DNA of 64,000 nt from assembly GCF_004010195.1 (NCBI RefSeq), contig NC_057751.1:19621994-19685993 (forward strand). Reading direction: 5' to 3'. This DNA is from Chiloscyllium plagiosum (taxonomy: Eukaryota). The translations under genes were made by a program, and so were the position numbers. Below the pieces are notes generated by a model that saw only the letters and a program-made list of their open reading frames with translations, ran no database searches and was not told the origin of the DNA. This document shows, piece by piece, positions 5,890-62,440 of this stretch. Numbering within the stretch: the first letter of the stretch is position 1; the number at the start of each line of letters is the position of its first letter.

Positions 5890-6023
5890 CAGTTCTGAAA
5901 AAGCCGCACACTAGACTTGAAATGTTAACTGCTTCTTTCTGGATGCTGCCAGACCTGCTGACATTTCTCCAGCATTACATTTGTCTCAAGATTTCCAGGA
6001 CCTGCAGGATTTTGCTTTTTATT
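5890..6023 (+). mobile_element. Old Penelope-like fragment (related copies ~50290-50385, 54698-54762, ~49190-49278)
   Basis: ctgaaaaag...cttgaaatgttaac core remnant plus the gatgctgccagacctgctga...ccagca body shared with the other copies. Confidence 0.5.
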
Positions 6024-6140
6024 AATGGGCAATATCTGCCTGGTTATTGCATGATGAATATTAGCCATTAATGCTGTCGAATACTTTCAGTTTTGGAGAA
6101 AATGCACTGGGATATTTTATTTTATTGATGTTTGAACTGT

Positions 6141-6146
6141 AATAAA
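6141..6146 (+). terminator. Candidate poly(A) signal for a long NEMP1 3'UTR
   Basis: AATAAA overlapping a TGTA element (ctgtAATAAAc), followed by U-rich sequence in a repeat-poor stretch. Other AATAAA sites (5232, 5372) are alternatives. Confidence 0.3.
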
Positions 6147-7259
6147 CAGTGCAGAAAATATCATTGTTTTATTTATATATTCATTTGTGAGAAGTGTTTA
6201 ATGAATGGGAAGAGGAGATTTTTTTTCCCCTTCTATAAAAGACGCTTTTGTACATAATACTCAGGCTCAAATGATCTGCAAAGGGTAAACAGGTAGGTAG
6301 ATTGCTGTCTGCGTTCTGGTGATCAGGTAGCACCTGTCTTTTTGTGTGCTATCTTCCTTGAATGCCATGATCGACATTGAGAATTCTGAACTATTGGTAC
6401 TTTCGTGATGCACAAAACATTGCTTTGCTCCAGGTTTGGTGACAGTTATAATCTGAAGTACTAAGGTAGGACAGCAGAAAAGTGAAAGTTTATTGCCTTA
6501 GTTTGCTAAATTTTCAATCCCAACCATATTCACAAGGATTTAAAGTTGTTATGCGCTGGAGCCAAGGATCCAGTGTGGATTTTAGATTAATGATTGGGTG
6601 GGGATAGGGATGGGGGGTTTGGGGTGAAAGTAAGCCATCAAATAGGTCTGTGTACAATACAAAACTATGCATAGGATTTCAACAGCAATGGAGATATAAT
6701 ATTAGAATGAAGGAAAATATTAGAATACAGTTAGCACCCAAGATTGTTTTGCAATTCAGCGTTGAGACAAATGAGCCAGGATCCATCTGTCTTAGCTGCT
6801 TATTCCTTTATTGCTGGTGGAGAAAGGTGATTTCTGTTTCTGCCCCTAAATGGCCTCACTATAATGTTAACATTATTCCCTTTTAAATTCCCCCACCAGA
6901 GGAAATGACTTATCTGTACCGAATTGATTTAACCTTTTTATAATTTAATACGTTGGTTAATCATCCCCAAGTGTTCTAAATACAGTTGACTATGTGAGGC
7001 AAAGTTAAAGTTTTTTTTTCTGAGGAGTTAGTTTTTGTAATCAACTTCCTCAAGATAGAGTAGTGAAGGCAGGGTCATTGAATATACTCAAGGCTTAACT
7101 AGATTTCTTTAAGCTACAGGGGTTGTAGAGAACTAGTCTCAATCAAATTAATTTAACTTTTTATTGAATAGTAGACCAGATGCAAAGGTCTGACTAGTAT
7201 TCCTACCTGCTCCTATTTCTTTCGTTATGTTCTAAAGCTGCAGGTAACCTTGCCTCATT

Positions 7260-7730
7260 CAATTCACGGTAACGCTGGTACTGCGCTTGCGTTGGGATGT
7301 ATGACGGCACGTCCGGCTTGCACCGGAAGTGGAACTAGAGTCCCTCCTATGTCGCTGCCGCCGTTCTCAGAAACTGGTTGAAAAGGGTGGTTTTGTTTGG
7401 AGTGGAAACGTTGAAAGTGCCACTTTACCGCAGTCGGCGACAGTTTAGCTCGACTGCATCGGGCTACCGCTACTTTTTTTTCCTTAATGCTGTGAGTGGA
7501 ACGGCCGCTTGAAACTGAGGTGAGAACGGTTCCCGTGACATTCGGAAAATCAAACCCCCTAACTGAATCCAAACAGAAAGGGGGAGGGAGGCTCGCGCAT
7601 CATTCTAAACTGACAGGAGGAGCAGCCAGTCACAGCGGGACATTTAGCTCACGTCTAGACCTGCGGCCAATCAGAAACTGGGAGGTGGGTGCTGTTTTTC
7701 AAGGGGCGTTTCCCTTTCACCCGTCGTTAG
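7260..7730 (+). promoter_or_regulatory. DNAJC14: CpG-rich promoter and probable non-coding exon 1 of DNAJC14
   Basis: Local CpG enrichment in CpG-depleted DNA, ETS/GABP motif CCGGAAGT 7323-7330, candidate donor GCT|GTGAGT at 7492 and an NF-Y box GGCCAATCAG ~7665-7674. It is the only such island between NEMP1 and DNAJC14 exon 2. Confidence 0.65.
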
Positions 7731-9499: not shown

Positions 9500-9635
9500 A
9501 TTGGATGTAAATTTGTTCTGAGCTGGAAGGTTCATTTTCAGACGTTTTGTCACCATACAAGTTAACATCATCAGTGAGCCTCCGGTGAAGCACTGGTGTT
9601 AGTGACCTGCTTTCTATTTGTGTTTAGGTTTCCTA
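9500..9635 (-). mobile_element. Penelope-like fragment, third hammerhead family, core mutated
   Basis: Minus strand tcaCTGATGAtgttaacttgtatggtgacAAAAcgtctga (G12->A). Downstream sequence matches 54038-54085. Confidence 0.6.
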
Positions 9636-9673
9636 TGGTGTTAATCCAGCAACTCAGATAATGTTCTGGGGAC

Positions 9674-9822: not shown

Positions 9823-9834
9823 GAATCTTGCCAA

Positions 9835-20102: not shown

Positions 20103-20256
20103 TCAAAGAGTGTGGCACTGGAAAAGCACAGCCAGTCAGGCAGGTTTCATCAGCCATTCCTGATGAAGAGCTTATTCTTGAAACATCAACTCTCCTGCTC
20201 CTTGGATGCTGCCTGACCCTGATCTCCAGCATCTGCAGTCCTCACCTTTTTCCTAG
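20103..20256 (+). mobile_element. Penelope-like mini-element, partial fold-back, degenerate hammerhead
   Basis: ctgatgaagagcttattcttgaaacatc at 20160-20187. TSD catttgata at 20091 and 20257. Confidence 0.65.
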
Positions 20257-20884
20257 CATTTGATAATGTGGCATCCAGGAATATTAGCAAAATTGAAGTC
20301 AATGGGAATCTGAGTGGGGTAAAAGAAACTTTTTAACACGAAGGATTGTGATTGTTGGAGGCTCATCGTCTTGGCCCTAAAACAAGAGTTCCCCAAGATA
20401 GTGTCTGAGGTCCAATCATCTTCATCTGCTTCATCAATTACCTTCCCTCTATCATATGATCAAGTGGGGATATTCGACACTGCGCAAAGTTTAATCCCAT
20501 TTGTGACCCCTCTGATATGATGCACTCCATTCCAGCATGCAGCAAGGGCTGGTAAATGGCAGGTTACTTTTGTGCCATACATGCCTGCCCATGACCGTCT
20601 CCAACAGAATCTAGCCATCTCCCCATGATATTCAGTTGATCATTGAATTCCCTCCCCATCAGTATCCTGTGAGTTATGATTAATCAGAAACTGAAATGGA
20701 CAGGTCATATAAATGCTGTAGCTTGTTGCAACAGATCAGAGACTAGATAGTCTAGGATGACTAACACTCACCACCTGATTTTTCCAAAACCTGTCCACCA
20801 TGTATATGGCATAATTTAGGAGTGCAACAGAATTCTGTCCCCTTGTATAGATAATTGCATCTTCAACAGCACTCCATTTGATCG

Positions 20885-21070
20885 ACCCTTCCAACTATCA
20901 ACCGGATTCATTCCTCCCATCGACCAACCAGGTTGTACCCTCTACCTATTTTTACCTATCCCTAGCTCACCACCACCACCCCAGCCCTGAAGAAGGGTTA
21001 CACCCAAAACGGTGATGTCTCCACCTCTTGATGCTGCCTGACTTGCTGTGTTCTTCCAGCCTCCTGTTTG
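20885..21070 (+). mobile_element. Penelope-like 3' fragment with degenerate hammerhead
   Basis: ctgaagaagggttacacccaaaac (GAAA mutated to AAAA), followed by the gatgctgcctgacttgctgtgttcttccagc body. Confidence 0.55.
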
Positions 21071-22367
21071 ACACTGTCCAGCCAAGCAAATCTGTTTGAC
21101 ACCCTGTCCACCATCTTAAGTATTCACTTGATCCACGATGGACACAGTAACAGTGGTTTATACTATCTAGAAGTACTTTGATAACACTTTCCAAACCATG
21201 ACTGCAACCTAGAAAGACAAGGGCAACAGATGTATGAGAACACCACTGCTTGCAAATTCACCTCTGAGGCATATACCAGCTTGACTTTGCACTGTATCAC
21301 CTCGCTGTTCCTTCGTTGTTGCTTGGTCAAAACGCTGGAATTCCCTTCCTTATAATGCTCTGGGCGTAAGTTAACCACATGGAATGTAGTGGTTCAATAA
21401 TACGTCTCATCATCCCTCTCCATGATAAATAATTGAATCATCCTTGTCGGAACACACGACAGAAAATATTTTTTTAAAAATCTCAGCTGGAGTGACAGCA
21501 TGGTCTACAGCTTGTCTATTTTTCAACCAGGTGGTGTGCATGTGAGATATATCACTTATCCCAAATTTGTGAGAGAACAGCTCACCTTCACCTAATTTCC
21601 TATATTCAGATTCCAACCGCTGGAAAAGTATTAAGATAGTTCTGCTACAAGTGCCAGCTCCACCCATGATGTGCACAGATGAACATTGTTACTGTCTGTG
21701 CAGGAGAAAATAAAACTAAAGAAACAAGTTGATTTCAAATTTTGAATGTGAACCTGAAGTTTGTTTCACCTGCAAAAACTGTCTTTAGAGCTAGATTTTA
21801 GAGGATATAAGCTGCATTTGACTTGTTATACAGTCTCTACTGGACACATTAGATTAGTGAACACATTTGTCCTGATTCCTTCCTACCAGTTTGAGAGATT
21901 ACAGGAACAGCACTGGAATGTTGAGGTACACACTCAACATTGTAAAGAGAACAAGAGTACAGTCCCAATCACTTCCCTTCACTCTTTTATCAAATCAACA
22001 TGTTAACTTGGGTTTGCATTTTTTTTTAAAGCTGATTCTAAAGATTACTTGGTTAATATCAAAAGTAGCATTATACTTGAGATAGGAAAGTTTTATATAT
22101 CTGATCTCTAGATGGTGTGGAAGAGTTAATTGTCCATCACATATACTCGTTCATCCTTTTTCTTCATTTGTGAAAAATTGGTGGCAACAGATTAACTTAA
22201 GGCTGTATTCTAACCTTGTTCTGCTGGCAGTTATATTTTGAGCAGTCGCCATTTTCTGCAGTCCACATCTTTTCTGTAATGGGCCTTCAGCTCCCGATCC
22301 CAGTTTGCTTCTTGACCAGATATCTCTTAAAAAGAGGACTGAAAGGCAGTGTGCAGGTTAACCTCCT

Positions 22368-23209: not shown

Positions 23210-25021
23210 ATGGAGAGGAAAGATCCCCATGCTAGATGCAAAGATCTGCAGTGGTCAGAAAGAAACACAAACCATGGATATATGAAGGAAGAGCAACGGT
23301 TGTCTCATCACAGCCATTCCCAGTTTGATGAGATACGACAGCCAGGTGTCAGTCTCCTTTGTGATGATAAAACAACTGATTTTCCAAACTACTCTTGTGG
23401 TGCCCGGTGCGATGGTGCTGACTCAAGTCAATATATTTCGGAACATGTCTGTACCTCTCGTGGTAATATGAGCTGGCAAAGGACAAGTCATCAAGCTTCG
23501 AGAAATAATGATAGTGGGATCTGTACGCCAGTTACCTTGACAGATTGGACATTTGGTGATGTAAACTGCTTTGATCACAAAGGACCGTGTTCGGATCAAC
23601 TTTTAGATGAAGAGTTGAAGACACTGGAGATGGAAGGGTTGAACTTCCCATGTGGGCATCTGGATTTTACAGGGCAGATGCCATCCCTTTATTGTTCAGA
23701 CATGTCAGGTGATGAGTGCAACCTTCAAAACACAAAGATGGAGTTGGCCGGCATTGAGAAGCCATACTCTCTCACTGGTGTAACTGATTGTGAAAATGTG
23801 TCTGAGAAGGATTCACGTGAAAACGGATGTGTCTCCTCCATTCATCGAAGGGAGATTTCTACCTGTACTCACATGTTTTTAGAAGGCTGCCTTCAACCAG
23901 GCAGCTATGGAGACCACAACTTCCCTTTCAAGACAGATGACAATCTATCTTTCCTCGACAACTTAGATTGTATTCGTTCTACCAATACTTCTCAAGAAGA
24001 TGGGATAGATGAATGTAATGAATTCAATGAAGGTGAAGGCATGGATGAAAACCCAGTAAAAACTGTGGAAGATATCAGCCAACCTGTGAGGTTTAGCAGC
24101 AGGAAAAGCAATAAACGCCAGAGAAACAAATCGGCAACAAAAGATAACTCTTCAAACATCTATGATAAGGATGATGCAAGGGAGCATGTGAAGAAGAATG
24201 GCAAGTCTTCAACTGCTAATAAACAGAGGCACACAAAGGCTGAGAGGAAACGACAGCATGCTGACAACCGGGACAGATTAAAGAGTGGAGTGCAAAAACA
24301 AACTCAGGAGCTGCTTTGGAAATGTGTAACCTATATAAAAATTCTAATGGATGTTATTCTTTTTGTGACTCTCAAGTGTGGAGAGTGTGTGGAGTTAGGA
24401 GGCAAACTTGTGTATTCGTGTTGCCAGATACAAAAAGAAGACTTTATTTACTTAAAGGGCAATGCAAGGACCTCATGTCTGTGGCTTCTTAAGCATGCAA
24501 AATCGGTGTCAGGGAAGCTTAAATGGTTTTGCTTTTCCTCAACAAAGATGACTATAAAGATTTTAAAAATGCTGCTTGCTCTGCTTTTTCTCGTACTAAT
24601 GTTATTTATAGGATGTTTACGACTCTGCTACAAATATGGAAAATCTGGGATTTCCAGGATATTTCAGAGGTTGCCCATATGGGGCAAAGAAAACTTTCCC
24701 CATTTCCCAGTTGTTCGCTTTCTGCACAGCTTGTGCTCATCTATAGCAGAATCTAGGGCTTGGAATTATTTGAAAAGACTATGGGAAAAATTGAAAATGC
24801 GATCCTGGCTAACTGGTAAATGGCGGACTGCAGGCCAGTCTCCAGTTCTATCCCCCCACTCACCTAGTGGTAGTAGATACCAGCCAGATCACGAGGTGGA
24901 CAGGCTACTAGCAATGGCCGATATGCCAGAAGAGGATCTGGATCCTTTTAAAGTTCTGGGCGTGGAGGTAATGGCCACTGATGCCGAGCTAAAAAAGGCT
25001 TATCGGCAGTTGGCCGTACTG
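23210..25021 (+). CDS. DNAJC14: DNAJC14 first coding exon (604 codons: long N-terminus, hydrophobic segments, start of J domain)
   Basis: 608-aa ORF ending EVDRLLAMADMPEEDLDPFKVLGVEVMATDAELKKAYRQLAVL, then donor CTG|GTGAGT at 25022. Acceptor ttctttcttacag| at 23128. Confidence 0.95.
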
Positions 25022-26182
25022 GTGAGTGCTACGTGAAAGCATTTTAGTTAAAAACAAAATTAATCTGTCTATCTGATTTGCTTATTTCTGTTTGACTACC
25101 ACAACCAAAGTTTTAAATATTGAATGTCTAAAATTTGCTTTCATTTTCCACCTCTTTGGTATAACCTGTACAAATATTGCTCATACTTCTCTGGTTAGCC
25201 TTTTTTTTAAACACGATGCTGTTACCTGAGAGAGTAATGAATATTTACAGCAATTTAAAATTTTCCTCAATTCCAAAGACTTCTCATGTCTAGTTTACTG
25301 TTTCCTGTGTGTCAGTGGCTTTTAGGTATTGAACCTAAGGTCAGCCATTTTGTCAGTGGTCACTTGGATGCGTTTCTGGAAGGGGAGAGTTGGATAATGA
25401 CTAGGAGCTGGAACCCAGTAGATTTTTTTTTTCCTTCTTTGCTCACCTCTGTTGTACCAAATTAATTTGTAGTAATTGGTTGTGATACCCAAAATCAAGA
25501 CTCTGCAGACTGAGCCAGGTCTGTATGGTCCATTGTCAAGGTTTTATTGTATATTTACCTCCTTAACCATTGGAAAGGAGGTGGGTAGTGCTTTATTAAA
25601 ATAATTTTTCTGTTCAGTCAGATAATTTAATATCATTTGATCCAGCTGTATTCGTCTGATATTTTGAAATCTTGATTTCCTAATGTTACATGAGCTTACC
25701 TGGTAATATTTTTCATTTGCAGCACTATCTGGGAGATTGTTCAACATTTGGTTATGAGAATGCTGGTGCCCTGTTTATTTAAAAAAAATTCATTTATGTA
25801 GTGCCTTTAGCACAGCAAATTCACCCAAGGCATTTAGCAAAATGGGCACTAAACCAGAATGTTTGCTGTTGCACTCTGCCCGCACAGTGGTGTAATGTCA
25901 GTGTTGGATTTGTCTTTCCTGTGTCACATTGAGTTCTCTGTCTTGGTTCTGTTACTGAGCAAAAAAGCAGTGGTGCTCAAGACTGCATTCTGAACGCCAG
26001 TGGCTGAATCTCTGACTTCCAGACCTCAGTCACTGGTACCATGTAGAACGTAATTGACAGTGATCAGACATCTCCTCTAAAACAAAAAATTTAACCAGCA
26101 GCCACTTCCTCTGGCATTGTAGAGGAGTAAATGTGAAATCAGGCAATTTAGACTAACATTCTGTAAGTATAGAAAAAGAGAA

Positions 26183-26605
26183 TTACATTTCTGTAGTGCC
26201 TTTCACAACTTTGGGGCATCCAAAACGCTTTGCAGCCAATGAAGTACTTTTTGAAGTGTAGTCACTGTTGTACGAAACGCAGCAGCCAATTTGTGCATAG
26301 CATGCTCCCGCAAACTGATGTGTTATAATGGCCAGATCATCATTTTTTTCAAGATGTTGATCAATATTCTGCAGGATGCCAAAAGTAGCTCCTCTGAAAA
26401 TTAGTGGCTGAGGAATCTTTTCTGTCCACCTGAGAAGATACACAGACTCTCTCTCCTGTTAAACGTCTCATCCAAAAGAGAACACCTCTGTCAGTGCCAC
26501 ACTAGTGTCAGCATGGATATTGTGTTCCAGTCACCAGTGGAGCTTGAACCCACATCCTTCTAACTCCGCGGTGATAGCTATACCAACTGAACCATGGCTG
26601 ACAGC
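26183..26605 (-). mobile_element. Deu-domain SINE (SacSINE1/AmnSINE1-like), near full length
   Basis: Head gtcagccatggttcagttgg..gggttcaagctcc and Deu domain (gcagccaatttgtgcatagc, cagccaatgaagtacttt). Confidence 0.75.
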
Positions 26606-27837
26606 TGAATAAACAGGTTTTTTTTGTACTGAAATACCTTTTGATCAAAATGGGTGAATGGACAAAATTAATTTGCTCTGTGTCTAAAAACATTGCATGA
26701 TGCATTTTGCACTAAATTGTAACATAATTATCTGGACCTTTGTGGAGTAGGGCATCATGTAACATGTCCAGTTTTTTTTTTCATTCTCCCCCCCCCCCCC
26801 CCACTCTTCTCATTTTGTTTATGCTAGAAATGTGAGCTGCTATCGGGGCATCTGGAACCTCTGAACAGTGGGTCCAACGAGCTCATCATCTTAACCATTT
26901 TGCAAATGATACAAAGGATGAATGAGAAGGACATGAAGTGAATTAGTTTCAAATATAATTTGAAAGCAAGGGAGAGAAAGATTGAATTAAGAAAAAGGGA
27001 AAATGAGTAAAGTGCTTTTGAAAATCTCCAAATAGTTTACTAGGTGCAGGAATGAGAATCCACACTTTTCATGTTGCTGCTTCTCGCAGAGGAGGTTGAG
27101 TAATATTGCAAGACTGTATAGGATCCTTCAGTTGCTAAATATCAACCCTCACTGTCTCCGGCTGTTCAGTTCACTAAGGCGCAAATGCAGCAATTCTTCA
27201 AAATCCAAAGGGAGTTTGACAACGTGCTGTCTTGCAAGGCTAACAATGAAGCAGCGCAAATTGTCTGGCAGCTGTGGCAGTTCGCAATTCAGTTTGCAGA
27301 CCTTGTCCCCTCTGCAAGTCGGTCTAACTCAACGCTAAAAACAGCAAGTGCATTAAACTGGCCATTATTTTTCCCAGCAAGATCTGATGCTGTTTCAGCT
27401 AAAACAGCAGTCATTTATTATTTAAATATAAAACAAGATGAGTTGCTTTCTTGTCTTCCCTCATTTTGCAACCTATTCTATTTAAGTTTTGATAATGTAC
27501 TTTTTGCTTCTCCTTTTATTGTGGTTAATTTTATAACAATGCTGCTGTGGTTAGTTAACTAACTAACAGAAGACATTTCTCTTTTTAAAAAAAGATCAAT
27601 CTTCTGATCAGCATTCTCCTTTAGAGCTTTTGAGACTTTATAAAACTCGTATTCTCTGGACTGGTGCCAAAATCTGAAAGACGGTAAAGATTGTAAATTC
27701 TCAAAAGGAAATTTCTACAAGGTTCAAACCATATGCAACATTCAGAAAGTTACAGTCTGATTGGTTCGGAGCAGGTCATCTAATTTTAACTGTGCAATTG
27801 TTGCCTCCAGTCCAAAGGTTTTGACTACCCTGCAGAA

Positions 27838-27938
27838 GTGAGAGAGCGTGGTGCTGAAAAAGCGCAGCAGGTTAGGCAGCATCCAAGGAGCAAGAAAGTT
27901 GATGTTTTGGGCAGGACCGTTCCTCAGGACTTTCTCCT
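27838..27938 (-). mobile_element. Penelope-like mini-element, degenerate hammerhead
   Basis: Exact 14-bp TSD actaccctgcagaa at 27824-27837 and 27939-27952. Body matches the 62031 family. Confidence 0.7.
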
Positions 27939-38129: not shown

Positions 38130-38232
38130 AGTGGGCTGGGTGTCAGAGGGTTGGAATATCTCCTGATATACATAATGTTCCTTACCATATATCCTTTGCT
38201 ACACGAACTTCTGGAAACAGTGGTAGACATAG
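38130..38232 (+). CDS. DNAJC14: DNAJC14 coding exon 5
   Basis: tcttcag|(E)[33 protein letters not shown](R)|gtaagt; 103 nt. Confidence 0.95.
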
Positions 38233-39811: not shown

Positions 39812-40121
39812 TTTTAGATTAGATTACTTAGTGTGGAAACAGGCCCTTTGGCCCAACAAGTCCACACCGACCCTCCGAAGAGCAACCCACCCAGACCCAT
39901 TCCCCTACATTTACCCTTCACCTAACACTATGGGTAATTTAGCATGACCAATTCACCTAACCTGCACATTTTTGGACTGTGGGAGGAAACCGGAGCACCT
40001 GGAGGAAACCCACACAAACACGCGGAGACTGTGCAAACTCCACACAGACAGTTGCCCGAGGTGGGAATTGAACCCGGGTCTCTGGCGCTGTGAGGCAACA
40101 GTGCTAGCCACCGTGCCGCCC
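39812..40121 (-). mobile_element. HE1-like V-SINE, full length
   Basis: tRNA head ggcggcacggtggctagcac..gggttcaattcc, V-domain gtgtggagtttgca..ggtttcctccaggtgctccggtttcctcccacagtccaaa, CR1-like tail and (TCTAA)n. Confidence 0.88.
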
Positions 40122-40283
40122 ACATCCATGTTGTCAGACCCTTCAATGTACTTTGTTGAATGACTTCTAGAAATCAAAGTACAGTATGTCAACACACTGC
40201 CCCATTATCTAGAGAACTCCAATAAATTGATTAAACGTTACTTCCCTTTTAACAAAATCATGCTGACTCTTCCCAATAACCTT

Positions 40284-40413
40284 ATACTCCACAACCACCT
40301 GATGAAGGAGCAGTGCTCCGAAAGCTAGTGCTTCCAAATAAATCTGTTGGACTATAACCTGGTGTTGTGATTTTTAATTTTATACACCCCAGTCCAACAC
40401 CAGCATTTCCAAA
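40284..40413 (+). mobile_element. 130-bp Penelope-like mini-element
   Basis: 13-bp TSD tcccaataacctt at 40271-40283 and 40414-40426. Inserted in an old CR1; hammerhead core near the 5' end. Confidence 0.75.
40293..40333 (+). ncRNA. Minimal type-I hammerhead ribozyme, second family
   Basis: aacCAC-CTGATGA-A-GGAGC(AGT)GCTCC-GAAA-GCTA^-GTGctt: palindromic AGCT helix III and CUA triplet. Confidence 0.7.
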
Positions 40414-42309
40414 TCCCAATAACCTTGTTCTTCTGAGTGTCCACTATGATCTCCTTAACGAGCAGTTCTGACACCTTTCTCACAATAGTCATCAAGCTAA
40501 CTGGTCTGTAGTTACTGGTTTTCTGCTTCCCTCCTTTTAAATGGAGGGGACATATTTATGCTACTTTTCAGTCTGATGGAACCTTCCCAGACTATCTCTA
40601 ATTTTGGAAAATTAGCATCAATGCATTTACTGCATTGAGCCAAGGATGAAGTCCATCAGGACCTGGGGAACTTGTCAGCTTGCAGCTCAGTAATGCTTCC
40701 TTGGTGATTGTAATTTCAACAAGTTCCTCTTTTCTTTCTACCTCTTGATTTACAGCTATTACTGGGATGAATTTTGTATCCTCTATAGTAAAAACAGAAG
40801 CAAAATATTTGTTCATTTCATTCACTATTGCCTTCTAATCTATTATTAACTCTCCATTCTCACTCACTAAAGGACTAACTCGCTTTATTTACACTTTTTC
40901 TTTAGTAAGAATTTCTACATGTATTTACTATCTATTGTTTACACTTCTAGCCAGCGCCCTGTCATACTCAGAGGTTGATCAGAAAGAAGAAATTAAAGTC
41001 ATTCTCTGCCATTCTTTCTATTCTGGCCAATCATCCAACTTGCTACTCATCTTTTGCACAGTTATGTTTTTTTCTTAAGTTTTTGCTTATTCTGAAATAT
41101 TGCTTTAATTATCTGCTACAGCTTCTCTATTGATCTATCTCCTAGCCTATTATTGCATTTCACTTTGGTAGCTCAGCTCTCAAGCCTATATAGTGGCTTT
41201 TATTTAAATTTGAAATACTAATCTTAGATCCACTCTTCTCCCTTTCAAACAGGATGTAAAATGCAATCCTATGTTGGTTGCAACTGTTGAGAGGCTCCTT
41301 AACTCTGAGGTCATTATACAATACAGAGTCCAATATAACCTGCTCTCTGGTTGGTTCCAGATATGTAGTTCTAAGAAGCTACCTCAGAATCATTCAATGA
41401 ACTCCTCCTCATCCAGGCTACCATTGCTAATCTAATATTCTAGTTATATGCAGATTAAAGTCACCCATGATTATTGCTGTCCCTTTATCACAAGCACCCA
41501 GTATACATTGTGGTTACTATAAGAGAGTCTGTAGACCACTTCCCCTAGTGACCTATTATTCCTCATCTCCACCCAAATCAGTTTTACATCCTGATTTCCT
41601 GAATCAAGGTCACCTCTAACTACTGCACTGATTAACAGTGCTACCTCTCCCTTTTTACCAGCTTTGAATGTCTTATATCCCTTAATATTCAGGTCCACTC
41701 CTTGTCATTCTGCAGCTGCATCTCTGTAATGGCTATCATATTTATCTATTCCAATGTGTGCTACGTGCAGTCAGATTCGGAGTGTTTAGTTTTGTCTTTT
41801 GTTATCTTTGTAACATCTGTTAGTCTCTCTAACCTCTCTGGTTATTCTCTGATTTTCATTTCTTGTATTACTATGTTGCTGTCTTGCTTCAACTCTACCT
41901 TTTAACTATAACTATCCAAGTTTAAAACCTCCTCTGCTTCCTTCATTATGTGTACATCAGTGCCAACAGGCCAGGTGCCAGTGTCCCACTGGAAACCACT
42001 TCTCGCACATATATCTTTGAGCTAAGCATTCATTACTCTCTTATTTGCCTGATATGAATTTGAACATGGCTCCATAATCTAAAGATTATTTCCTGTTTGA
42101 GGTTGTGTTTTGTATTTTAGTGCCCATCTTTTCATACTTCCTCAGCAGAACCTCTTTCCTAGGTCTACCTCTGCTTACTGGTATCAACATGAGCCTGGAC
42201 AACTGGATCCTTCCCCTCTCACTGCAAGTTCTTTTCCAACCCAGAGCAGATATCCTGAACCTGGCTACTGGACACAGCACAGCTGTCTGGACTTGCCCTC
42301 TTTGTTGCA

Positions 42310-43555
42310 GTGAACAACTGGGCCATCAAGCAGCACCTGTTCAGCAATAATCTGCTCACTGATGCCAGGTTTAGGTTCCATCAGGGCCACTCAGCTCCTG
42401 ACTTTATTTGCAGCCTTTGTTCAAATAGGGACAAAAGAGCTGAATTCCAGAGGGAAAGTGAAAGTGACAGCAAGGCTGCATTTGACTGTGTGTGGCATCA
42501 AGGAGCCAAGCAAAACTTGAATTCACTGGGAATCAGGGAAAACTCTGCATTGTTTGGAATCATATCTGGCACAAGGGAAAGTGGCTGTGATTTTTAGAGA
42601 TCAGTCATCTCCACTCTAGGGCATCTCTGCAGGAGTTTCTCAGTCATGTCCTAGGTCAACCTCATTAGCATTATTTAGTGATATTCCCTTTCTGATAAAG
42701 TCAGAAGTGGGAATGTTCGCTGATAATTGCACAATGTTCAGCACCATTCGTGACTCCTCAGATACTGAGGCAGTCCATTTCCAAATGCGTCAAGACCTGG
42801 ACAATATGTAGGCTTGGGCCGACAAGGAGAAAGTAATATTCATGCCATGCACACGTCAAGGAATGACCATCTCCAACAAGAGGGAATTTAACAATTACCC
42901 TTTGACATTCAGTGGCATTACCATCAGTGAATCCCCTGTTATCAACATCTTGGGATTACCATTGACCAGAAACTCAACTGGACTAACCATATAAATAGTG
43001 GCCTCAATAGAAAATCAGAGGCTAGGAATACTGCAATGTATAAGCCACCTCCTGATTCTACGAAGCCTATCTACCATCTACAAGAAATAAGTCAGGAGTG
43101 TGATGGAATGCTCCCCACTTGCCTAGATGGGTACAGCTTCATCAACATCCAAGACAAAGCACCACATCCACAAACATACGCTCCCTCCAACACCAACATT
43201 CAATAGCAGCAGCATTGTGTACCATCTACAAGATCTACTACAGAAATTCACCAAACATCCTTGGCAATTGTAGGTTTGGATGGTACTGTTGATCATCTAG
43301 AAGGCCATGGGCAGCAGATACATGGGAACCCTACCACCTCCAAGTTTCAAACAGTGCCATTCCTTCAGTGTTGCTGGGTCAAAATCCTGGAACTCTTGAA
43401 TAACTTTGTGAGTCTACTTCTGGGTATACAGACTGCAAAGGTTCAAGAAGGCAGCTGACCATCATCATCATCACCTCAAGAGCAACTAGGGATGGGCAAT
43501 AAATGCTAGCCTGGCCAGTGGATGCCCATGTCTCATGAGTGAGATGAAAGAAAAA
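42310..43555 (+). mobile_element. RT-3' fragment of the same LINE family nested in an old CR1
   Basis: atgttcgctgataattgc (MFADNC, RT catalytic motif) at ~42713; 3' tail at 43480-43555. Confidence 0.8.
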
Positions 43556-44799
43556 TGTCAAACACCCTCCTTATGCTGAACCTGACTAAGGCTATGTTCC
43601 TTTTTGCTCCTCCTACTTGAATGGCTTTCTTTGTCCATGGTACCTTTGTCAGTTAGGTCTTTTCAGCTTGGTTGGATGGAAGTGTAGGTTTCACAATAGA
43701 TGACCTAAAACTTTTTGGACAGTTACAAAACCAGAGGCTCCTGCGTTCCTGTCTGCTGGGTACCCTTGCCTGCATCACGCGCAGTCACACCCTCCTGTCC
43801 CTGACCACTGGCCAAATCCGATGATCCCATCCTAAGGGGTGTGGTTGCCTCCTGGAATAAAGTATTCAGGTGACTTCCCCTCCCTGATGTACAGTGTCTG
43901 CAGCTCTGAATTCAACCCACTGACTGACGTTCCTGAAACTGCAGATGGATTTATCCTTAATCATGCTGGCATCCAGAAGTTCAAGCATCTTGTAGTCACA
44001 GCACATCACCTGCACTGCTAGCTTTATTGTGTTAATTAATAAACATTAATTAAATGGCTGGGAATTGTAAATTTCACCAGTGCAGATAAAGATCTTACAA
44101 TTACTAATAGTTATGCTGGTTGTAGGTTGGTAATCATATATACAGTCCCAAACAGCAGTTACTCATAGACGCATTATCTCTCTGTTGTGGCTTAATTTTT
44201 TTTTTCCCCCAATCAGATGTTCTCCAGAAGGAGAAGCTCCAGGCCGAGGCCTCCTTTTATCTTCTGCTGTCTCATCTCTCTGCTGTCTTGAAGCTAAAGG
44301 GCTGGGTCCCAGAACCTGCGCCTCCACCTGTTCTCTGTTGCTGCTTGCTGCTGTCTTGAAACTCTGCAATTGCTCTCCAATTGTCTTTAATATCCAACTG
44401 GCCTCATTATTGTTTTTATTTTAGTAAAGGAAATCTGCAACTTTACCCAAGGCCAACATGGTTAACTCTTATCTGTCTGCTGCAGTGGCCAAGCAGCCTG
44501 TATATTTGCATCATTTCAAAAGCTACCATATTTCTGAGCACCTGAGATGAACCTTCTGCCAGTGCCCACATCTTGCAAATGGATACTTTTTTAAAAATCT
44601 CACTGGATGGACAATATTGTGGGCGAGAAAATGCACATAAACACTTTGCAACACTCTGCAAAAAGAGCAAAGAACAGCTTCAGGAAACCACTAATTTTTC
44701 AGTTCAGGTATTCTCAAAACAGCTTAAAGCAAATTACTCTTCCCTAGCGACTGATTTTCTTTTCCTTTTAGTTATGAGAATTTTGTTAGTTTATTCATG

Positions 44800-45157
44800 A
44801 AGAAATTCACTAAGGTTCTCTAGAGAGCACCTTGCAAATGCATGACCACTTCTATCCAGAAGGACTCGTGCAGTAGATGCATGGGAACACAATCACCTAA
44901 ATGTTCTCCTCTGGCGACTTGGCTAGAGGAGAACTTGGAAATATCACTGACTTGGAAATATCACTGCTTCATCAGTGTCACTGGATCAGAAGCCTGGTTC
45001 AGCTTCCCTAACTATATTGTGGGTGGCCCTACACTAAATAGACTGCAGCAGTTCAAGAAGGCAGCTCACCACTGTCTTCCCAAAGACAACTAGAGATGGC
45101 CACTAAGTACTGGCCAACCCAGTGAAGCCCAGGTCTCATGAATAATTAAAAAAAGAA
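44800..45157 (+). mobile_element. 3' end of the same LINE family
   Basis: cagttcaagaaggcagctcaccac...caactagagatggc...catgaataattaaaaaa. Confidence 0.7.
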
Positions 45158-46375
45158 ACTTTCCTCCCTGAATTACCTGAGAGACTCAATACATTTGCTA
45201 TTGACATTATCCTAGCGTATAAAGGGACCTGATAATTTCACAACATGGAATTAGGTCATGTAGCAACAAAGCAGCAGCGTGTTACCTTGCTTGATCTATC
45301 CCTCATTAAAATCAATATTTTCATACCATTTAATGTTTTCAATATGTAAATAACCACTCCTCACCCCACCATCTTATTTCATTTTCTCTCCACTGTTGAA
45401 AACACCCAGTTGCTTAGGTGTAGTTCCATGTGTGTTCTTCATTACCCTGCCCCTTTGTATTGCTCAACTATCAGACTGCAAGGACAGATCACATGGACAT
45501 TTGCTAGCAGGCTTCATTCAAATCTGATCAGAAGTGAGAACATGTTTTTTTTTAAGTGTTTTGTCTTGGCCTGAAGCTATATTACCTATATTACTGAGAT
45601 CTGCTAACATGGCACATACTAAGGATCAAAACTGGAACCTACTGATGTACAATTACTTCCAGAATCATCTAGCGAAGTCCTGATGTCAAGTTAAAGGTGC
45701 TAGCATCATGTCTACGTGCAATAGTCATGGTTCAGTGGGGCTTGACACATTGGGTAATACAAATGTAATTGTATAGCACAGCACACCTATGAGTTGAATT
45801 TTTTTTAAATAATTGTACCTTACTGGAGGTGCAAGTTGTGTAGAGTTTATTCTAATAATACTGGAGGAAAAAACCTTTCCTTGTGCCAATTTCTGCGGTC
45901 TGTAAGAATCATACTGTTCGGATAGCAGTCTGGACAGGTTGTGTTCCAAACTCTCTGATTAATAATAATGGACTATAGTTCTCTTTATTAGTTAAAAAGC
46001 CACATAGACTTTTTCACTAAACACAAGTGGAGGGAATGGGCACTGCCTGTCTTTAGCTATGCTCTTGTAGAGGTTTGTGAATGGTAAAATGCTCCCTATA
46101 AGGAAGACATTTGAAAAAAATTAAGCTCAAACTCTTCTCATTCTACCTTTATAACAGTCAGCTCAACAATAGCATTGACAGAAGTTGTTTGTTTGTCCAC
46201 ACCAAGGAATGATGTGTGATACAACTGCCCTCCACATGAGAATTTCTTGAAGTGAATCTAGCAGACTGCGAGTTAAAATTATTTACAGACATATTTTGAA
46301 GTCAGGATGGTTGCTGCCATTTGGAAAGGGGTGGAAAAACATGGATTGTAATACCTCTGTCTCCCTCTTGTTTAG

Positions 46376-46586
46376 AGCTAGTTCTGAGAATGGCCCAAGT
46401 CCTCCCACTGACCTCCAAGACTTCTTCAGCAAGATTTTCCAGGGTGCTGGACCTCAAACAGCGAATGGGAGCTTCTTTGGCCCTCCGCAGCCAAGGTCCA
46501 ATAGTCAGCCCAAAGCAGAGGCTGCACAAAGAACCGAAACAAAGCAAAAGCGGAGGAAGAAGGTGCGACGAACATTCCCACGCTGA
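46376..46586 (+). CDS. DNAJC14: DNAJC14 last coding exon
   Basis: tgtttag|ASSENGPSPPTDLQDFFSKIFQG...KQKRRKKVRRTFPR*, the typical basic C-terminus. Summed CDS is 2514 nt = 837 aa + stop. Confidence 0.93.
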
Positions 46587-49600: not shown

Positions 49601-50551
49601 GCCAGAACCTTTTCAGGAGTGAAAATAAAATGCAGATTGCATTACCAAAGTGTAGTTTATTTTTGTAAAGGAGTGTACTTTTAAAAATGGTATTAAGAAT
49701 TTTGTATCTTTATATCTCAACTATACCTTACCTTCCATTCTTTTACAGTAAAGAACTCTCATTTATGTACCACCTTTTATGATCACAGGCTGTTCCAAAG
49801 GACTTTACAGCTATTAAATACTTTAAAGTGTAGCAACTGGTGTAATTTAGGAAAAACAGCAGCCAATTTACACATAGTAAGCTCCCACAAACAGCAGTTA
49901 TATAGATATTAATTGTTTGCCAGGAGGAACCTACGCTCTTCAAAAAATATCTCATGGCACTATTATAGCCATCTGGGAGGATATATGGGCTTTGGTTTAA
50001 TCTGGCAAACCAACAACTAGGTCATCAGTTATTTGATTAATACAGAAGAGACACAAAAAGTTGTTAAAGATACATGCCTTCTACGGTCATATATAATTTC
50101 CTACTGGACACCCTAACCATGCAGATGGTTAGTCTGTCAGTATTTCATTCCAGTTACATGCAATAAAGGTGGTGGGCTTGAGAAGTCATGCCAAAATGAA
50201 ATCCATTTTTCAAGGTTTGTACCCATCTCTGTTTAATAATCCTAAATGTAATAGGAGTTAAAATCCCAGCTGAAATGTGCCTTTCGTTCCAAAGTTGAAT
50301 CATATTGGAGTCGAAATGTTAACTCTGTCTCTCTCTCCACGGATGCTGCCAGATCTGCTGAGTTTCTCCAACACTTTCTGCATTCACAGTATTTAGCTGA
50401 AATGCACTTTCGGTTGCTTTTGAACTCGTAAAATATTTGCAGCACTTTGCATTTTATTTTCAAAATAGATTTGCCTCAAATTATTTTTGTGTTTTTGCTG
50501 AGTAAAATTTCAGATTTTGCCAAATTTTTGCACTGTGAATGTGTGCATGTT

Positions 50552-50645
50552 GGTTGAGAGTGTGTTGCTGGAAAAGTAAGCAGGTCAGGCAGCATCCAAT
50601 GAGCAGGAGAATCGATATTTCAGGCCAGAGCCCTTAATCAGGAAT
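50552..50645 (-). mobile_element. Penelope-like mini-element, degenerate hammerhead
   Basis: Minus strand cattcctgattaagggctctggcctgaaatatcgattctcctgctc. Possible TSD gaatgtgtg at 50537 and 50642. Confidence 0.6.
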
Positions 50646-52435
50646 GTGTGTGTGTATTTCATTTAAAACATCCACGTCATCTGTGCAGAATAGATTTTTG
50701 GCCCAAAGCCTGGAAATGTAAGGACAGTGTTCTAACACTACCTTTAGTCCCTCAGCGCATTTGTTTTATTATTCTAATTTCCAATATTTGCACAGCAAGA
50801 TTCCACAGTTAACAGCATATAGTTAATCCGTCTGATGTTGACTGAGCAAGGAATGATGACCAGAAGAACTCCCTAGTTCTCATTCGTAGTGATCTGAGAT
50901 GATATTCGTCAGAAGAGGCTATAATTCAATATCTCATTTGTACTGGACAACCACCAATGCAACACTCCCTCATGAATGAATAGAGTGACTGAACTGTGAC
51001 CATGCGTTTAAAGCCTGGAGTGGGTCTTTAACGTGGGATCTTCAAACACAGAAGGCCAATTTGAGCTCTTTATTTCGTAAAAGTGTATTTATAGACCAAA
51101 CTTCATGACCTCCGATATCCTGAAGTGCTTTACAACCAATTAAGTGCTTTTGAAATTTGTCAGTGTAACTGCACAGCTAGATCCAACAGCAATGTGACAA
51201 TGGCAATGTAATCAGTTTTACTGATACTGACCAAGGGATAAGTGTTGCCCAGAGTCAGGGATCGAACTTCTTTGTTTCTTTTTAATTGAAGTAGTGCTGC
51301 GGGATCTTCATGCACCTTGGCAGTCAAATTGGAACTTGGTTTATTCTTTTATCTGAAAGATGACATCAGGAGAAGTGTGGAACTTTGAGCATTGGAATGT
51401 AAGTCTAAATATTTGTGTTCTAGTTTCTGGAATAGGATTGACCTTTTTAACTTCCAGAAAAGCATGATCTCCACCAAACCACAGCTGACAGCTTGGTTAA
51501 CTGATAACTACAGGTAATGGTTAAACTGAATGAACAGTTCACTTTTGTTAAGTAGATAAGATTACAAGTAATAAAAGTTACAAACCTGTAGTTCAGTGCT
51601 TCAAGACAGAGTAATTGAACAATTCCAGTTCACTTTTGCATTGCTTTGTGCTTCCAGACATTTGTCAATGCACTGGGACTAGCATTAGTTCAGTTTCTGG
51701 TTGCAATTCCAGTATTAAGGAAAAAGTGCACCTAACAATTTCATTTTGGAAGTACTGAAACTTTTCCATTCTTGAGACCCGATGTTGTGGACTCAGAGAT
51801 TAAGAATCCAGTCAAGATTGTATTAGCATTAACTCCTTTCAAACAACTCTCAACAAGAATTTGATTAATCCTTGGATCAATAGTTTCTAAGGTGCCATAT
51901 AGTCATAGGTGGACAATAGGCTTAGCACTGGACCTTTTCACCTTTGGAATGTGAATAATCAAGTTATGTACATTGGGTGGTGGTAGTTGAGATGTTGAAA
52001 TTTGAATACTACTTGTGCGTACAGTAATGTTAAAAGTCAAACACAATGACAAGGGCTATGATTTAAAGCATTACCAAGATCAAGGACCCCTCACTGTCAT
52101 ATCACTATATGCAACCCTTTTATACACTATCTCAAAGCTATGCTACTGCAATGCCAGAATGACTTTCTAAAGTGCAAGATAAAAGAATAGGACTCCCAAT
52201 TCAGTGAAAGTTTCAGAGAAGATTGCAAGGAGAGGTCAAGTAAGATCAAACAGCAGCTTTGCCATAGTTACAGATAGTAAGGTATGTGCCACGATGGGAG
52301 TGAGGAAGAAATCAGTTGGTTGGAATTTGCAAGGCACTATAGGTGGCAGCAGAGTTGACGTTTTGTGAATCTTTTCTAAATCTTTTACCTTAATTGCACA
52401 AACACTCCTCCACACCCTTATTGACGTAAACCTCT

Positions 52436-53931: not shown

Positions 53932-54975
53932 GAGTCATAGAGCAAGGAAACATACCCTTCGGTCCAACTGGTTCATGCCAACCAAGTTTCTAAAACTAAA
54001 CTAGTCCCATTTGCCTGAATTTGGGCCATATCCACCTGAAACGTCTGAAAATGAACCTTCAAGCTCAGCGAGCAAACCTACATCCAGAACCTCAACCTGA
54101 GCTACAAATCTTCTCAAAACACGCTTGGGCCATACCCCTCTAACCCTTTCCTTTTCATGTACCTATCTAAACGTCTTTTAAATGCTGTAACCGTACCTGT
54201 ATCTACCACTTCCTTTGGCAGTTCACTTACCATACGAACCACCCTGTGTGAAAAAGTTGCCCCTCAGGTCGCTTTTAAATCTTTCTCCTCTCACATCTCT
54301 GCCCTCCAGTTTTGAACTCCCTATCCTAGGGAAAAGACCTTTGCTATTCACCTTATCTATGCCCCTCATGATTTTATAAGCCTCTATAAAGGTCACCCCT
54401 AAACCTGCTACGCTCCACTGAAAGAAGTCCCAGCCTCTCCCTGTAACTCAAACCCTTCAGTTCTAGTAACATCCTTGTAAATCTTTTCTGCACTGTCTCC
54501 AATTTAATAATATTGTTTCTATAGAAGGTCCGCCAGAACTGTACACAGTACACCAAAAATGGCCTCACCAACATCCTGTACAACCGAAACATGACATCCC
54601 AACTCCTATACTCAAAAGTCTGAGCAATGAAGGCAAGTGTGCCAAACGTCTTCTTTACCACCATGTCAACCTGTGATGTAACTTTCAAGGAACCATGATT
54701 TCTCTACACAGATGCCACCAGACCTGCTGAGCTTTTCCAACAATTTCTATTTTTTGTTTCTAAACCCCTAGGCTTCTTACCAAAATACAACACCTCGCAT
54801 TTTATTTAAATTAAATTCCATCTACCATTCCTGGGCCCATTGGCCTAATTGATCAAGATCCCTTTATAATCCTACATAACCTTCTTCGCTATCTACTATA
54901 GCACCAATTTTGGTGTCATCTGCAAACTTACTTACTAACCATGCTTTCTATATTCTCATCCAAATTATTTATATA
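53932..54975 (-). mobile_element. CR1 3' fragment
   Basis: ORF LYRMLVRPFLVYCVQFW..LETVQKRFTRML; KFADDTK remnant ~54910-54930. Confidence 0.88.
54034..54124 (+). mobile_element. Penelope-like fragment inserted in a CR1 3' end
   Basis: TSD ttgggccata(t/c)cc at 54021 and 54125. Begins at the GAAACGTC half of the hammerhead. Confidence 0.65.
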
Positions 54976-60251: not shown

Positions 60252-60430
60252 ACTCACCAGCTCCTTTAACTACGATCAGGAAGGCCTCCTCCGCTCAACC
60301 TAACCTGTCACCGCCGTGTCTGCTTAACTCAGCTGTTGTTTGGCTGATCGGGTTGCATTCACACTGGGATTGGCTATCTGCAACGTCAATCACATGGCAC
60401 AATGGCTATCACAATAGGTTGCACGCCAGC
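60252..60430 (-). promoter_or_regulatory. ORMDL2: ORMDL2 promoter and non-coding exon 1
   Basis: Minus-strand donor CTG|GTGAGT (exon end 60258), CCAAT box (GCCAATC 60368-60374), TGACGT CRE-like site 60383-60388 and locally raised CpG. Confidence 0.7.
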
Positions 60431-60559
60431 TCTGAAAATCTAACGAAGGTGGCGGGGTGGAGAATTAGCCGACAAAAAATACGCAGGGTAACTAAATTGT
60501 TGTCCATCTCCAGCTTAAGTTGGGTGCGGGAGGGGATTGGTAGTTTCCACTTTTCGAGA

Positions 60560-60871
60560 TATTTTCTATTCCATCTGCTTAAAGGTATTATTATCCACCT
60601 CTGGAGCAGATGGACTTGACGCAGGCCTTTTGGCTCAGAGGTTGGAGAACGACCACAGTACCACAAAAAACTTTTTCTATGTGTTCTACGGCAGCCTTTC
60701 AAGCGATTCTCTGAGGATATTCCTAATATAACTAAGCTCTTTTAACTGGGGATACCCACTGAAGTGACTTTTAATCAACTTGCTCAGACGTATTTGACAC
60801 ATCTCTGCGACAGGTGGGACATGAACCTGGATCTTCTGGCTCAGAGGTAGGGCCATTACCACAAGAGCCCT
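60560..60871 (-). mobile_element. Two ~105-bp tRNA-like SINE units just upstream of the ORMDL2 promoter
   Basis: cctacctctgagccagaagatccaggttcatgtcccacctg and caacctctgagccaaaaggcctgcgtcaagtccatctgctccagagg. Confidence 0.55.
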
Positions 60872-61854
60872 TAGAATTTCCATTTTTATGTTGAGTCTCA
60901 AATGTGAAAATCAAGTTTTATTTTTCAGAAACAGTTTATTTCATTGTCATCTCTGCCAATATGGTACCCGGTAGCTGTGCCAATTTAGTGCAGGGCCTGG
61001 GAATCTGAGTTCCCACTTACCAGGGCCACCCTAGGATTGGCACATGTTACCCAGACCACAGAATAGGGTTGAGGGGTGCAATCTTGGTGTAGGGTGCACA
61101 AAACAAAATGTTTCAGTTCCTGCCAACTCAATACCATCATGTTTGTCATCCTCATGCTTCAATCCCTGCAAGGCCACCCAATTTCTAACTCACCAGCTGT
61201 GACAACACCTCATTCCCAATTACTGCATTTCTTTAATTCTGGCTTCTTGAGTATCCCCCACTTTCCATCACTCCACCATGGCCTTCAGCAAGCAAGAGGT
61301 CACAAGCTTTACAATTCCCTCTTGAAAGATGCTCCTTACCTACCTCATCCAACCTTTTACTGACCCTATCCCAATAACTCTTTCTTTGACCCAGTGTACA
61401 TTTTTTATCAATGTTGCTGTGAAGTATCTTGGGATGCTTCTCGGTTTTAAAGGCACTTGGGACAAGGAAAGCAACTGCACCCAATGTGAACACTTGACTA
61501 AGTTGGACGTTCTCCTCCATTGTTTGGCAATGCATTAAGATGAGAAAAAAACTGCATAATTATTTAGTTGGTTGCCAGCATCCAGATCTACAGGTTCTGG
61601 CCCGAGTCTCTGACAATAGTTCTTAGAGAATCAGATGCAGAGCTCTGGCTATCACGCTATGCCTGAGAGTATTGCTAAATTCAGCTCTGACCTTAAACTT
61701 GCCTCCACCTCCTTGTGTGTATGTTGCAACACTAATCTGCAATGATGGTCATGTGGAGAGGATCAAAGGGCAATTATCTTCACACCTGCTTCATGCAGCT
61801 CATCGTTCACCAGCAACATCAAACAGATCTTAGCATAATGGCAGCTTACAAAAA

Positions 61855-62440
61855 CGGCATTTCTATAGAACCTTTCATGATCTCAGAATATTCCAAATCA
61901 CTTTAAAATAAATGAAATGCGATTAAAATGTAATAATTGCTGTAATGTTTGCAAAATAAGCAGCCAATTTGTGCACAGCAACACCCCCCAGCCCCCACAC
62001 ACATCAATGTGATGAAGACTGATATGGGCCACTCCTGATGAAGGGCTTTTGCCCGAAACGTCGACTCTCCTGCTCCTCGGATGCTGCCTCACCTGCTGTG
62101 CTTTTCCAGCACCACACTCTTGACTCTAATCTCCAGCATCTGCAGTCCTCACTTTTGTCTAATGTTTTACTGATGTCACTTGAAGGATAAATATTGGCCA
62201 GGACACCAGGACAACTCCCTCGGGCTGCTTTGAAAAATGTGTCATGGGATCATTACATCTACCCAATGGGGAGAAGGGGCCTCCTTTCACCATCTCATTG
62301 GAAGGACGCCATCCTTGACAATGTGGCATGCCCTCAGCACTGATCCTCTGATAGTGCCTATTCCCTCAGTGCTGACCCTCCAACAGTGCCTACTCCCTCA
62401 GCACTGAACCCACAGCCTCCTGACCCCAAGGCGAGAGTTT
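61855..62440 (-). mobile_element. Deu-domain SINE with an internal ~29-bp tandem expansion
   Basis: gcagccaatttgtgcacagca Deu motif; ccctcagcactga-containing units at 62310-62408. Confidence 0.7.
62031..62161 (+). mobile_element. Penelope-like mini-element with intact hammerhead core (62035-62062)
   Basis: CTGATGA-A-GGGC(TTTT)GCCC-GAAA-CGTC, then the family body ending ctccagcatctgcagtcctcactttt. Interrupts a Deu-SINE. Confidence 0.75.

Follow-up and report, generated by a model that had tools for sequence, protein, structure and literature searches.

The 64,000-nucleotide window analysed here (the shark Chiloscyllium plagiosum, NC_057751.1, positions 19,621,994 to 19,685,993 of the forward strand) contains 13 short insertions, which we interpret as 70-220-base end-pieces of several Penelope-like element (PLE) families that carry mostly broken hammerhead motifs. 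They were likely inserted by the reverse transcriptase (RT)-endonuclease of a full-length element and are likely dead on arrival, and one family, termed A, would consist of run-off copies of the leader; to this reading as a whole we assign a probability of about 0.6. The class is already known: the insertions are PLE stubs of the pseudo-long terminal repeat (pLTR) with minimal hammerheads, found here in a shark at unusual density.

Inventory of the insertions

All 12 sites named in an initial annotation, which was made from the sequence alone, contain the repeats it described, whole or as fragments, and a thirteenth was added at ~54697-54765. The density of 0.20 insertions per kb (13 in 64 kb; 95% Poisson interval 0.11-0.35), or one per 4.9 kb, agrees with the earlier estimate of one copy per ~5 kb, and family A makes up 1.4% of the window DNA. 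At least three families had been proposed; the insertions sort into about five, namely A (20103, 27838, 34298, 36776, 50552 and 62031), A2 (20885), B (40284), C (9500 and 54034) and D (5890, 50290 and 54697). Families A, A2 and D have a common motif downstream of the core, and B and C show no match to these three. As had been stated, the insertions lack coding capacity: a Pfam scan of 242 of the 245 stop-to-stop frames of at least 62 aa found no GIY-YIG domain, and the inserts are without any Pfam domain. Fragments of long interspersed nuclear elements (LINEs) are also present in the window, and the RT/endonuclease Pfam matches fall outside the inserts.

Arms, tails and target-site duplications

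Four of the 13 insertions consist of two head-to-head arms and nine of a single arm. Each two-armed insertion pairs one arm bearing a tail of ~38 nt with one tailless arm, the copy at 27838 keeping 10 nt of the tail. The two copies of family C likewise differ by a tail of ~38 nt. In each of four public sequencing runs the 3' edges cluster at 62115-62120 and at 62155, ~35-40 nt apart, and part of the 62115-62120 cluster may correspond to alignment breaks between subfamilies.

Target-site duplications (TSDs) were scored as length minus 3 per mismatch, against a null of 150 random intervals with a top score of 9. Six insertions have a firm TSD (score of at least 10, reached by 0/150 null intervals), with lengths of 13 bp at 20103 (one mismatch), 14 bp at 27838, 16 bp at 34298, 13 bp at 40284, 10 bp at 50290 and 13 bp at 54034 (one mismatch). 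Two are borderline, at 50552 (9 bp, score 9; null 1/150) and 36776 (11 bp with one mismatch, score 8; null 4/150). No TSD above the null was found for the other five (5890, 9500, 20885, 62031 and 54697), a wider search included; the 9-16 bp duplications once ascribed to many of the copies are therefore firm in six cases and absent above the null in five. The optional tail at one end, the inverted arm and the TSD of variable length (9-16 bp, in 6-8 of the 13) are features of endonuclease-bearing PLE insertions, whose anatomy has been described (PMC8557442, PMC3846280). By analogy, these same features support the proposed Penelope-like origin and point to mobilisation by a PLE RT/GIY-YIG protein.

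Two smaller observations concern the tail. The tail end of family A (20225-20256; loose ends behind 62155) reads CTCAC, a pyrimidine run and AG, a pattern like that of a 3' splice site; PLE leaders often contain introns, and sense or antisense stubs could seed cryptic exons. A minus-strand 21-nt match to the family A/D tail at 63928-63948 (E 0.006) is possibly another tiny remnant.

Hammerhead cores

The full minimal-hammerhead descriptor is matched by only three insertions (34417, 40299 and 62035) and by none of 200 windows simulated with a first-order Markov model. In these three motifs the CUGANGA ... GAAA core encloses helix II, which has G10.1-C11.1; their helix III palindromes are ACGU, AGCU and ACGU, respectively, without a helix III loop, and their helices I comprise 5, 3 and 2 bp with open ends. 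All three, together with the damaged cores 20160 and 36903, have an extra base between positions 9 and 10.1, which had been noticed earlier as an additional base after A9 and is a published signature of PLE minimal hammerheads (PMC4209133). The statement that the families keep CUGANGA...GAAA thus applies to three of the 13. The others have lost G12 (20885, 27838 and 9500, the latter being the copy with GUUA.C/GUGAC), G8 (50552), the palindrome or the 5' half, the CUGANGA half being missing from 50290, 54034 and 54697.

The contrasting ACGU and AGCU palindromes and the variants of helix II are present in the sequence as described. The term "compensatory" for the latter rests on comparison between families and not on covariation within a family, because B has one copy and C two. 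No Rfam hammerhead family was found in a scan of the window at E<=10, which is expected because the motifs are minimal. PLE minimal hammerheads as a type are expected to self-cleave as dimers or with protein help.

The 5' edge of family A

Four public runs were mapped onto positions 61940-62240 with the copy at 62031 as reference. At a match threshold of 80% likeness, which also counts related families with the common downstream motif, run X1 yielded 88,993 matching contigs (84% of the run covered) and run X14, from another species, 81,564 (82% covered). The expectation of a very large genome-wide number is thus borne out, with more than 80,000 matching contigs per run in two species, most of the motifs being broken; summed contig depth was not taken as copy number.

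The main arms of family A in the window, six out of six, start within the equivalents of 62030-62034, a few bases from the first base of helix I. In all four runs, position 62033 is the largest 5'-side cluster of loose ends among those listed (24 of about 1000 rows), with at least 2082, at least 1957 and at least 284 contigs and at least 668 raw RNA reads. Upstream agreement at this position is 0.35, 0.35, 0.38 and 0.44; in a simulation that takes agreement as the average plurality share, a value of 0.35 corresponds to about 15% or fewer copies with one common upstream sequence. The true edge lies one to three bases further 5' than 62033, because at 62032 the reference carries a letter other than that of the family. 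The depth drop upstream of 62028 was not taken as evidence for the edge, as the reference is without family sequence there. Among the opposite-strand joints listed, seven of nine are fixed at 62033 on one side and variable on the other (62066-62092).

The predicted cut (after 62062) lies ~30 nt downstream of this edge. Since the edge lies upstream of the cut site and the copies span it, the RNA that was copied was uncut. Inversion joints cluster at 62066 and 62068, a few nucleotides beyond the predicted cut, and could represent either arms made from cleaved RNA or alignment clipping at the common variants 62065 and 62067. Past the 5' edge runs a faint common CACAACC-like sequence, also present upstream of the hammerhead of the PLE PAc and of family B, and past the 3' edge a faint CTCCTAG. 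Common sequence beyond both edges implies that longer templates exist. The plurality letters at the edge are TCATTCC. The initiator consensus is YYANWYY, which this heptamer fits.

The other families extend variably upstream, by 110 nt past the core in A2, 15 nt in B and 65 nt in C, in which one copy is instead cut inside the core. A discrete short unit with fixed ends was found for family A; in the window none was found for A2, C and D, which look like ordinary variable 5' truncations. The suggestion that the insertions form discrete short units rather than random truncations of long elements accordingly holds for the 5' edge of family A and fails for the other three. Joints from tail to start (62155 to 62033) occur in 50 and 55 contigs, with a spacing that the data do not give; they may stem from full elements of the form pLTR-open reading frame (ORF)-pLTR, from neighbouring copies or from short tandem arrays. 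No report of a fixed edge at helix I or of shark PLE hammerheads was found in the open-licence literature, and repeat databases and supplements may hold them.

Proposed origin of the stubs

In vitro, the PAc protein primes internally at two sites, nicks both strands and uses uncut RNA as its dominant substrate (PMC11167929). A related shark protein would likewise nick both target strands and prime cDNA inside the RNA at two sites ~38 nt apart, giving tailed and tailless arms; two primings from two nicks would then yield the head-to-head fold-back insertions with TSD, in which the pairing of the two arm types is observed. The template would be uncut RNA, as the copies spanning the cut site suggest, and the first bases of helix I would be its 5' end, probably an initiator-type start in the upstream pLTR. 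Start sites with initiator-like motifs have been reported within the pLTRs of Drosophila and rotifer PLEs (PMC2377424; PMC3846280). Priming on the leader pLTR of a full-length transcript would run off after 90-130 nt and leave a stub of fixed length, so that a separate non-autonomous family need not be assumed, and priming on the downstream pLTR would produce longer, variably truncated copies. PAc requires RNA to +172, beyond its priming site at +111-118 (PMC11167929); stubs are likely dead ends because they are without this RNA. After insertion the motifs decay in a pattern consistent with neutrality.

Several observations weigh against this account. The D. virilis element has its start ~120 nt upstream of helix I; what maps at helix I is the end of an intron (PMC4209133, PMC2377424), so a start at helix I is not general. 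In a rotifer, nothing but pLTR sequence was needed for mobilisation in trans, and stubs therefore need not be dead ends (PMC3846280). The fit to the initiator is that of a noisy plurality line in a pyrimidine-rich context, and a poly(A) run showed no pile-up of starts at helix I, though such a library is poorly suited to show one. The edge counts at 62033 are lower bounds, young long copies are under-represented among contigs, upstream agreement would also fall if there are several upstream subfamilies, and the genome-wide edge test covers family A only. The autonomous shark PLE was not recovered. Pattern scans gave 0 and 0 in viral contigs and 0 in prokaryote genomes; a metagenome scan gave 81 loci, none with a match longer than 34 nt to any family, which were taken as chance. 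Searches with the read-through frames of families A (43 aa) and C (41 aa) among longer proteins found no match, which is weak evidence, and an ORF starting inside the stub is hence unsupported. No ORF with RT and GIY-YIG beside the same pLTR was found among the window frames.

A further, speculative proposal, which we hold to be rather unlikely, gives the edge a function. If, in this shark lineage, Penelope RNA starts exactly on the first base of the hammerhead, the ribozyme would lie directly under the cap. Cleavage at 32 nt, dependent on a dimer or on protein, would then remove the cap and act as a copy-number-sensitive off switch for the element mRNA. Family-specific palindromes (ACGU vs AGCU) would keep the switches separate, and about a hundred thousand stubs would form a fossil 5' RACE (rapid amplification of cDNA ends). 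If true, this would provide a testable role for PLE hammerheads, whose function reviews call unknown.

Competing explanations

The discrete 5' and 3' edges, the very high number in two species and the distinct subfamilies, one of them very young (34298, arms 100% identical), would also suit a true non-autonomous Penelope derivative resembling a short interspersed nuclear element (SINE), some short copies of which produce transcripts that the PLE protein mobilises anew in trans. There are precedents for it: pLTRs suffice in trans in rotifers (PMC3846280), and Chlamydomonas is reported to have non-autonomous PLE derivatives (PMC8557442). It nevertheless appears improbable for family A, in that a stub ends at its own priming site while PAc needs RNA past this point (PMC11167929), some copies share sequence that continues past the tail, and the RNA, which comes about equally from both strands, runs into unrelated flanks and amounts to 0.027% of reads, looks like passenger transcription. 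Slightly more improbable, in our judgement, is that the copies have the proposed origin and the edge marks a truncation hot spot on the downstream pLTR, where the RT stalls or switches at a bound or structured site just 5' of the hammerhead. The PAc protein assists hammerhead folding and so may bind there (PMC11167929), PLE copies are described as highly 5'-truncated (bioRxiv 10.64898/2026.07.22.740005; PMC8557442), and three copies (20885, 9500 and 40284) read through the edge. However, the RT would meet the 5' strand of helix I only after that helix has been unwound, the edge is initiator-like and sharply confined to a few bases, and PAc extension in vitro passed the hammerhead, with a product length that tracked the template's 5' end (PMC11167929).

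The initial annotation called the system retrozyme-like, and this is not supported. For a non-LTR (long terminal repeat) retrozyme, tandem masters would self-cleave as dimers and circularise, and the circles would be reverse-transcribed into dispersed monomers. The 50 and 55 contigs with tail-to-start joints could be read in this way, and retrozyme-like tandem units proposed to be pLTR-derived have been reported in one chondrichthyan (bioRxiv 10.64898/2026.07.22.740005). But neighbouring copies or full pLTR-ORF-pLTR elements should give such joints as well, none of the 13 insertions is head-to-tail, the copies span the cut site uncut, no pile-up of RNA ends was seen in one poly(A) run, and the motifs are minimal rather than classical type I. 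On a circle, moreover, the tail would precede the edge in tailless-primed copies, and the plurality line upstream is without it. We therefore consider a retrozyme very unlikely. Least probable of all, and practically excluded, are DNA-transposon miniature inverted-repeat transposable elements (MITEs) that carry a hammerhead-like motif by chance: three insertions are indeed long inverted repeats flanked by a TSD, yet the TSDs vary from 9 to 16 bp, the two unequal arms abut at the centre, with the tail on one of them, and nine of the 13 insertions are one-armed. The variable TSDs and the one-armed copies refute the MITE reading.

Comparison with known systems

The closest relatives of the motifs are the PLE minimal type I hammerheads (Cervera and de la Pena 2014, PMC4209133), which have the same core, the extra base between 9 and 10.1, G10.1-C11.1, a palindromic 15.2-16.2 and a short helix I. 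As reported there, genomes likewise contain many divergent families, with helices that vary from family to family, mostly as single dispersed motifs from truncated PLEs, with some close pairs on opposite strands. Coelacanth and Xenopus have 4,000 and 9,000 intact motifs, respectively (PMC4209133), far fewer than the more than 80,000 matching contigs per run here; the latter include intact and broken ones, and the counts are unlike in kind. The available text of that report mentions no shark and no fixed 5' edge at helix I.

The units of endonuclease-bearing PLEs (Penelope/Poseidon and Neptune, PMC8557442, PMC3846280; PAc of Anolis, PMC11167929) are described as a pLTR with an adjacent inverted 5'-truncated copy and an optional 30-40-bp tail. 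They share with the shark insertions the tail at one end, the head-to-head inverted arm, the variable TSD, a hammerhead ~90-130 nt upstream of two 3' ends and an uncut template, and PAc in addition has the CACAACC-like motif upstream of the core. They differ in being randomly truncated as described, whereas family A stubs are mostly of fixed length; no ORF by which to assign a clade was recovered for the shark copies.

Animal non-LTR retrozymes (PMC7761336; bioRxiv 10.64898/2026.07.22.740005) are also short, non-coding and pLTR-related, with a type I hammerhead and known dispersed monomers. According to these sources, however, their defining traits are tandem units that each contain a hammerhead and abundant circular RNA, neither of which was seen in the window copies, the contigs and the one poly(A) single-cell run. 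Their hammerheads are classical type I with a 6-bp helix I and loop-loop contacts, compared to the open-ended helix I of 2-5 bp in the window. The tail-to-start joints leave room for rare head-to-tail arrays genome-wide. For annotation, most motifs of this kind are broken and should not count as ribozymes or retrozymes. The edge at helix I shows that uncut RNA was copied, agrees with PAc in vitro and points to a start site, which, if real, would bear on the role of PLE hammerheads.

Core decay, RNA reads and pairing in trans

Six CpG positions in or adjacent to the core show transitions at 10.5, 10.1 (G12), 13.4, 16.3, 8.2 and 3.8%, compared to 7.3 and 7.4% at one control site outside the core (depth-weighted contig values). 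Core CpGs have decayed at least like the outside CpG, so there is no sign of core protection. In a poly(A) single-cell run, family A reads come from both strands (about 1020 vs 1260 at the peak) and make up 0.027% of RNA reads, compared to its 1.4% share of window DNA, which fits passenger transcription of the stubs. No RNA start or end pile-up was found in this one run, a type of library that could hardly show a start or exclude circles. At 62124, 318 RNA reads of run X21 carry one common upstream variant (agreement 0.84), perhaps from a single highly expressed copy or subfamily.

It had been suggested that intronic copies might pair in trans or over long range. The introns of DNAJC14 hold four of the 13 insertions (27838, 34298, 36776 and 40284), with two intact sense cores (34417 and 40299), a number without power for strand bias. 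The palindromes of these two cores allow only two of four helix III pairs with each other. The core 34417 is sequestered in an 80-bp perfect fold-back hairpin of -171 kcal/mol, with a helix II pair probability of 0.0, and for 40299 this probability falls from 0.57 in the unit to 0.03 with 150-nt flanks. Long-range pairing in the DNAJC14 pre-mRNA, and likewise pairing in trans between the intronic cores of this gene, is unlikely according to these folding models, because the palindromes mismatch, 34417 is buried in its hairpin and 40299 loses helix II with its flanks.

Host genes and neighbouring repeats

The window contains two protein-coding genes facing each other (Table 1), and the first coding exon of DNAJC14 is 99% identical to a Hemiscyllium ocellatum protein, which marks the DNA as that of a hemiscylliid-type shark.

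Table 1. Insertions, intact hammerhead motifs and coding exons in the window.
Feature	Position	Strand	Remarks
Family D stub, single arm with tail	5890..6019	+	Begins with the 5' strand of helix I, whose 5 bp still pair; G8 changed to A, helix II decayed; TSD not above null
Family C stub, tailless	9500..9638	-	~65 nt upstream of core (C3 at 9574); G12 lost; inside SINE-like repeat; TSD not above null
Family A fold-back	20104..20256	+	Inverted arm without tail, internally deleted, followed by an arm with tail that begins at helix I (damaged core 20160); TSD 20091-20103 / 20257-20269
Family A2 stub, tailless	20875..21072	+	~110 nt upstream of core (20987, G12 lost), pyrimidine-rich; left edge approximate; no TSD
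DNAJC14 coding exons	23210-25024, 30205-30312, 31592-31711, 32586-32762, 38126-38233, 46374-46583	+	Gene span 23210..46583
Family A insertion	27838..27938	-	Tailless arm from core (27927, broken) and inverted 10-nt tail piece; TSD 27824-27837 / 27939-27952; DNAJC14 intron
Young family A subfamily fold-back	34298..34504	+	Two arms of 80 bp with 100% complementarity; the inverted one has the tail and is cut in helix II, the other begins at helix I and is tailless; TSD 34282-34297 / 34505-34520; DNAJC14 intron
Intact minimal type I hammerhead motif (34417)	34412..34449	+	ACGU palindrome and one additional A following A9; helices I and II of 5 and 4 bp; cleavage predicted after 34444
Family A fold-back	36772..36995	.	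Minus-strand arm with tail (core 36903, broken palindrome) and plus-strand arm without (broken core 36908); TSD borderline, 36761-36771 / 36996-37006; SINE-like repeat, DNAJC14 intron
Family B stub	40284..40413	+	Starts 15 nt upstream of core; TSD 40271-40283 / 40414-40426; DNAJC14 intron, sense
Intact minimal hammerhead motif (40299)	40296..40330	+	AGCU palindrome and one additional A; helices I and II of 3 and 5 bp; cleavage predicted after 40327
Family D stub without CUGANGA	50278..50394	+	TSD 50268-50277 / 50395-50404
Family A, one tailless arm from helix I	50546..50646	-	Core broken (G8 lost); borderline 9-bp TSD overlapping the element's first bases
Family C stub cut within hammerhead	54034..54124	+	5' half missing, 38-nt tail; inside LINE fragment; TSD 54021-54033 / 54125-54137
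Decayed family D-like fragment (13th)	54697..54765	+	Edges approximate
ORMDL-family coding exon	56866-57156	-	Downstream of DNAJC14, facing it
Family A, one tailed arm, helix I to tail end	62031..62160	+	Reference for read mapping; TSD not above null
Intact minimal hammerhead motif (62035)	62033..62064	+	ACGU palindrome and one additional A; helices I and II of 2 and 4 bp; cleavage predicted after 62062

One family C copy (9455-9680) and one family A copy (36725-37045) are separate inserts in copies of one SINE-like repeat, at almost the same TATTAAT/TGTTAAT site. Two families at nearly one site hint at an AT-rich target preference for PLE insertion; the target preference of PAc is reported as ATT. 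A LINE-derived inverted repeat of 151 nt (92%), with copies at 9669-9819 and 11403-11553 that lie 1.6 kb apart, adjoins nested LINE fragments at 9.8-13.2 kb.

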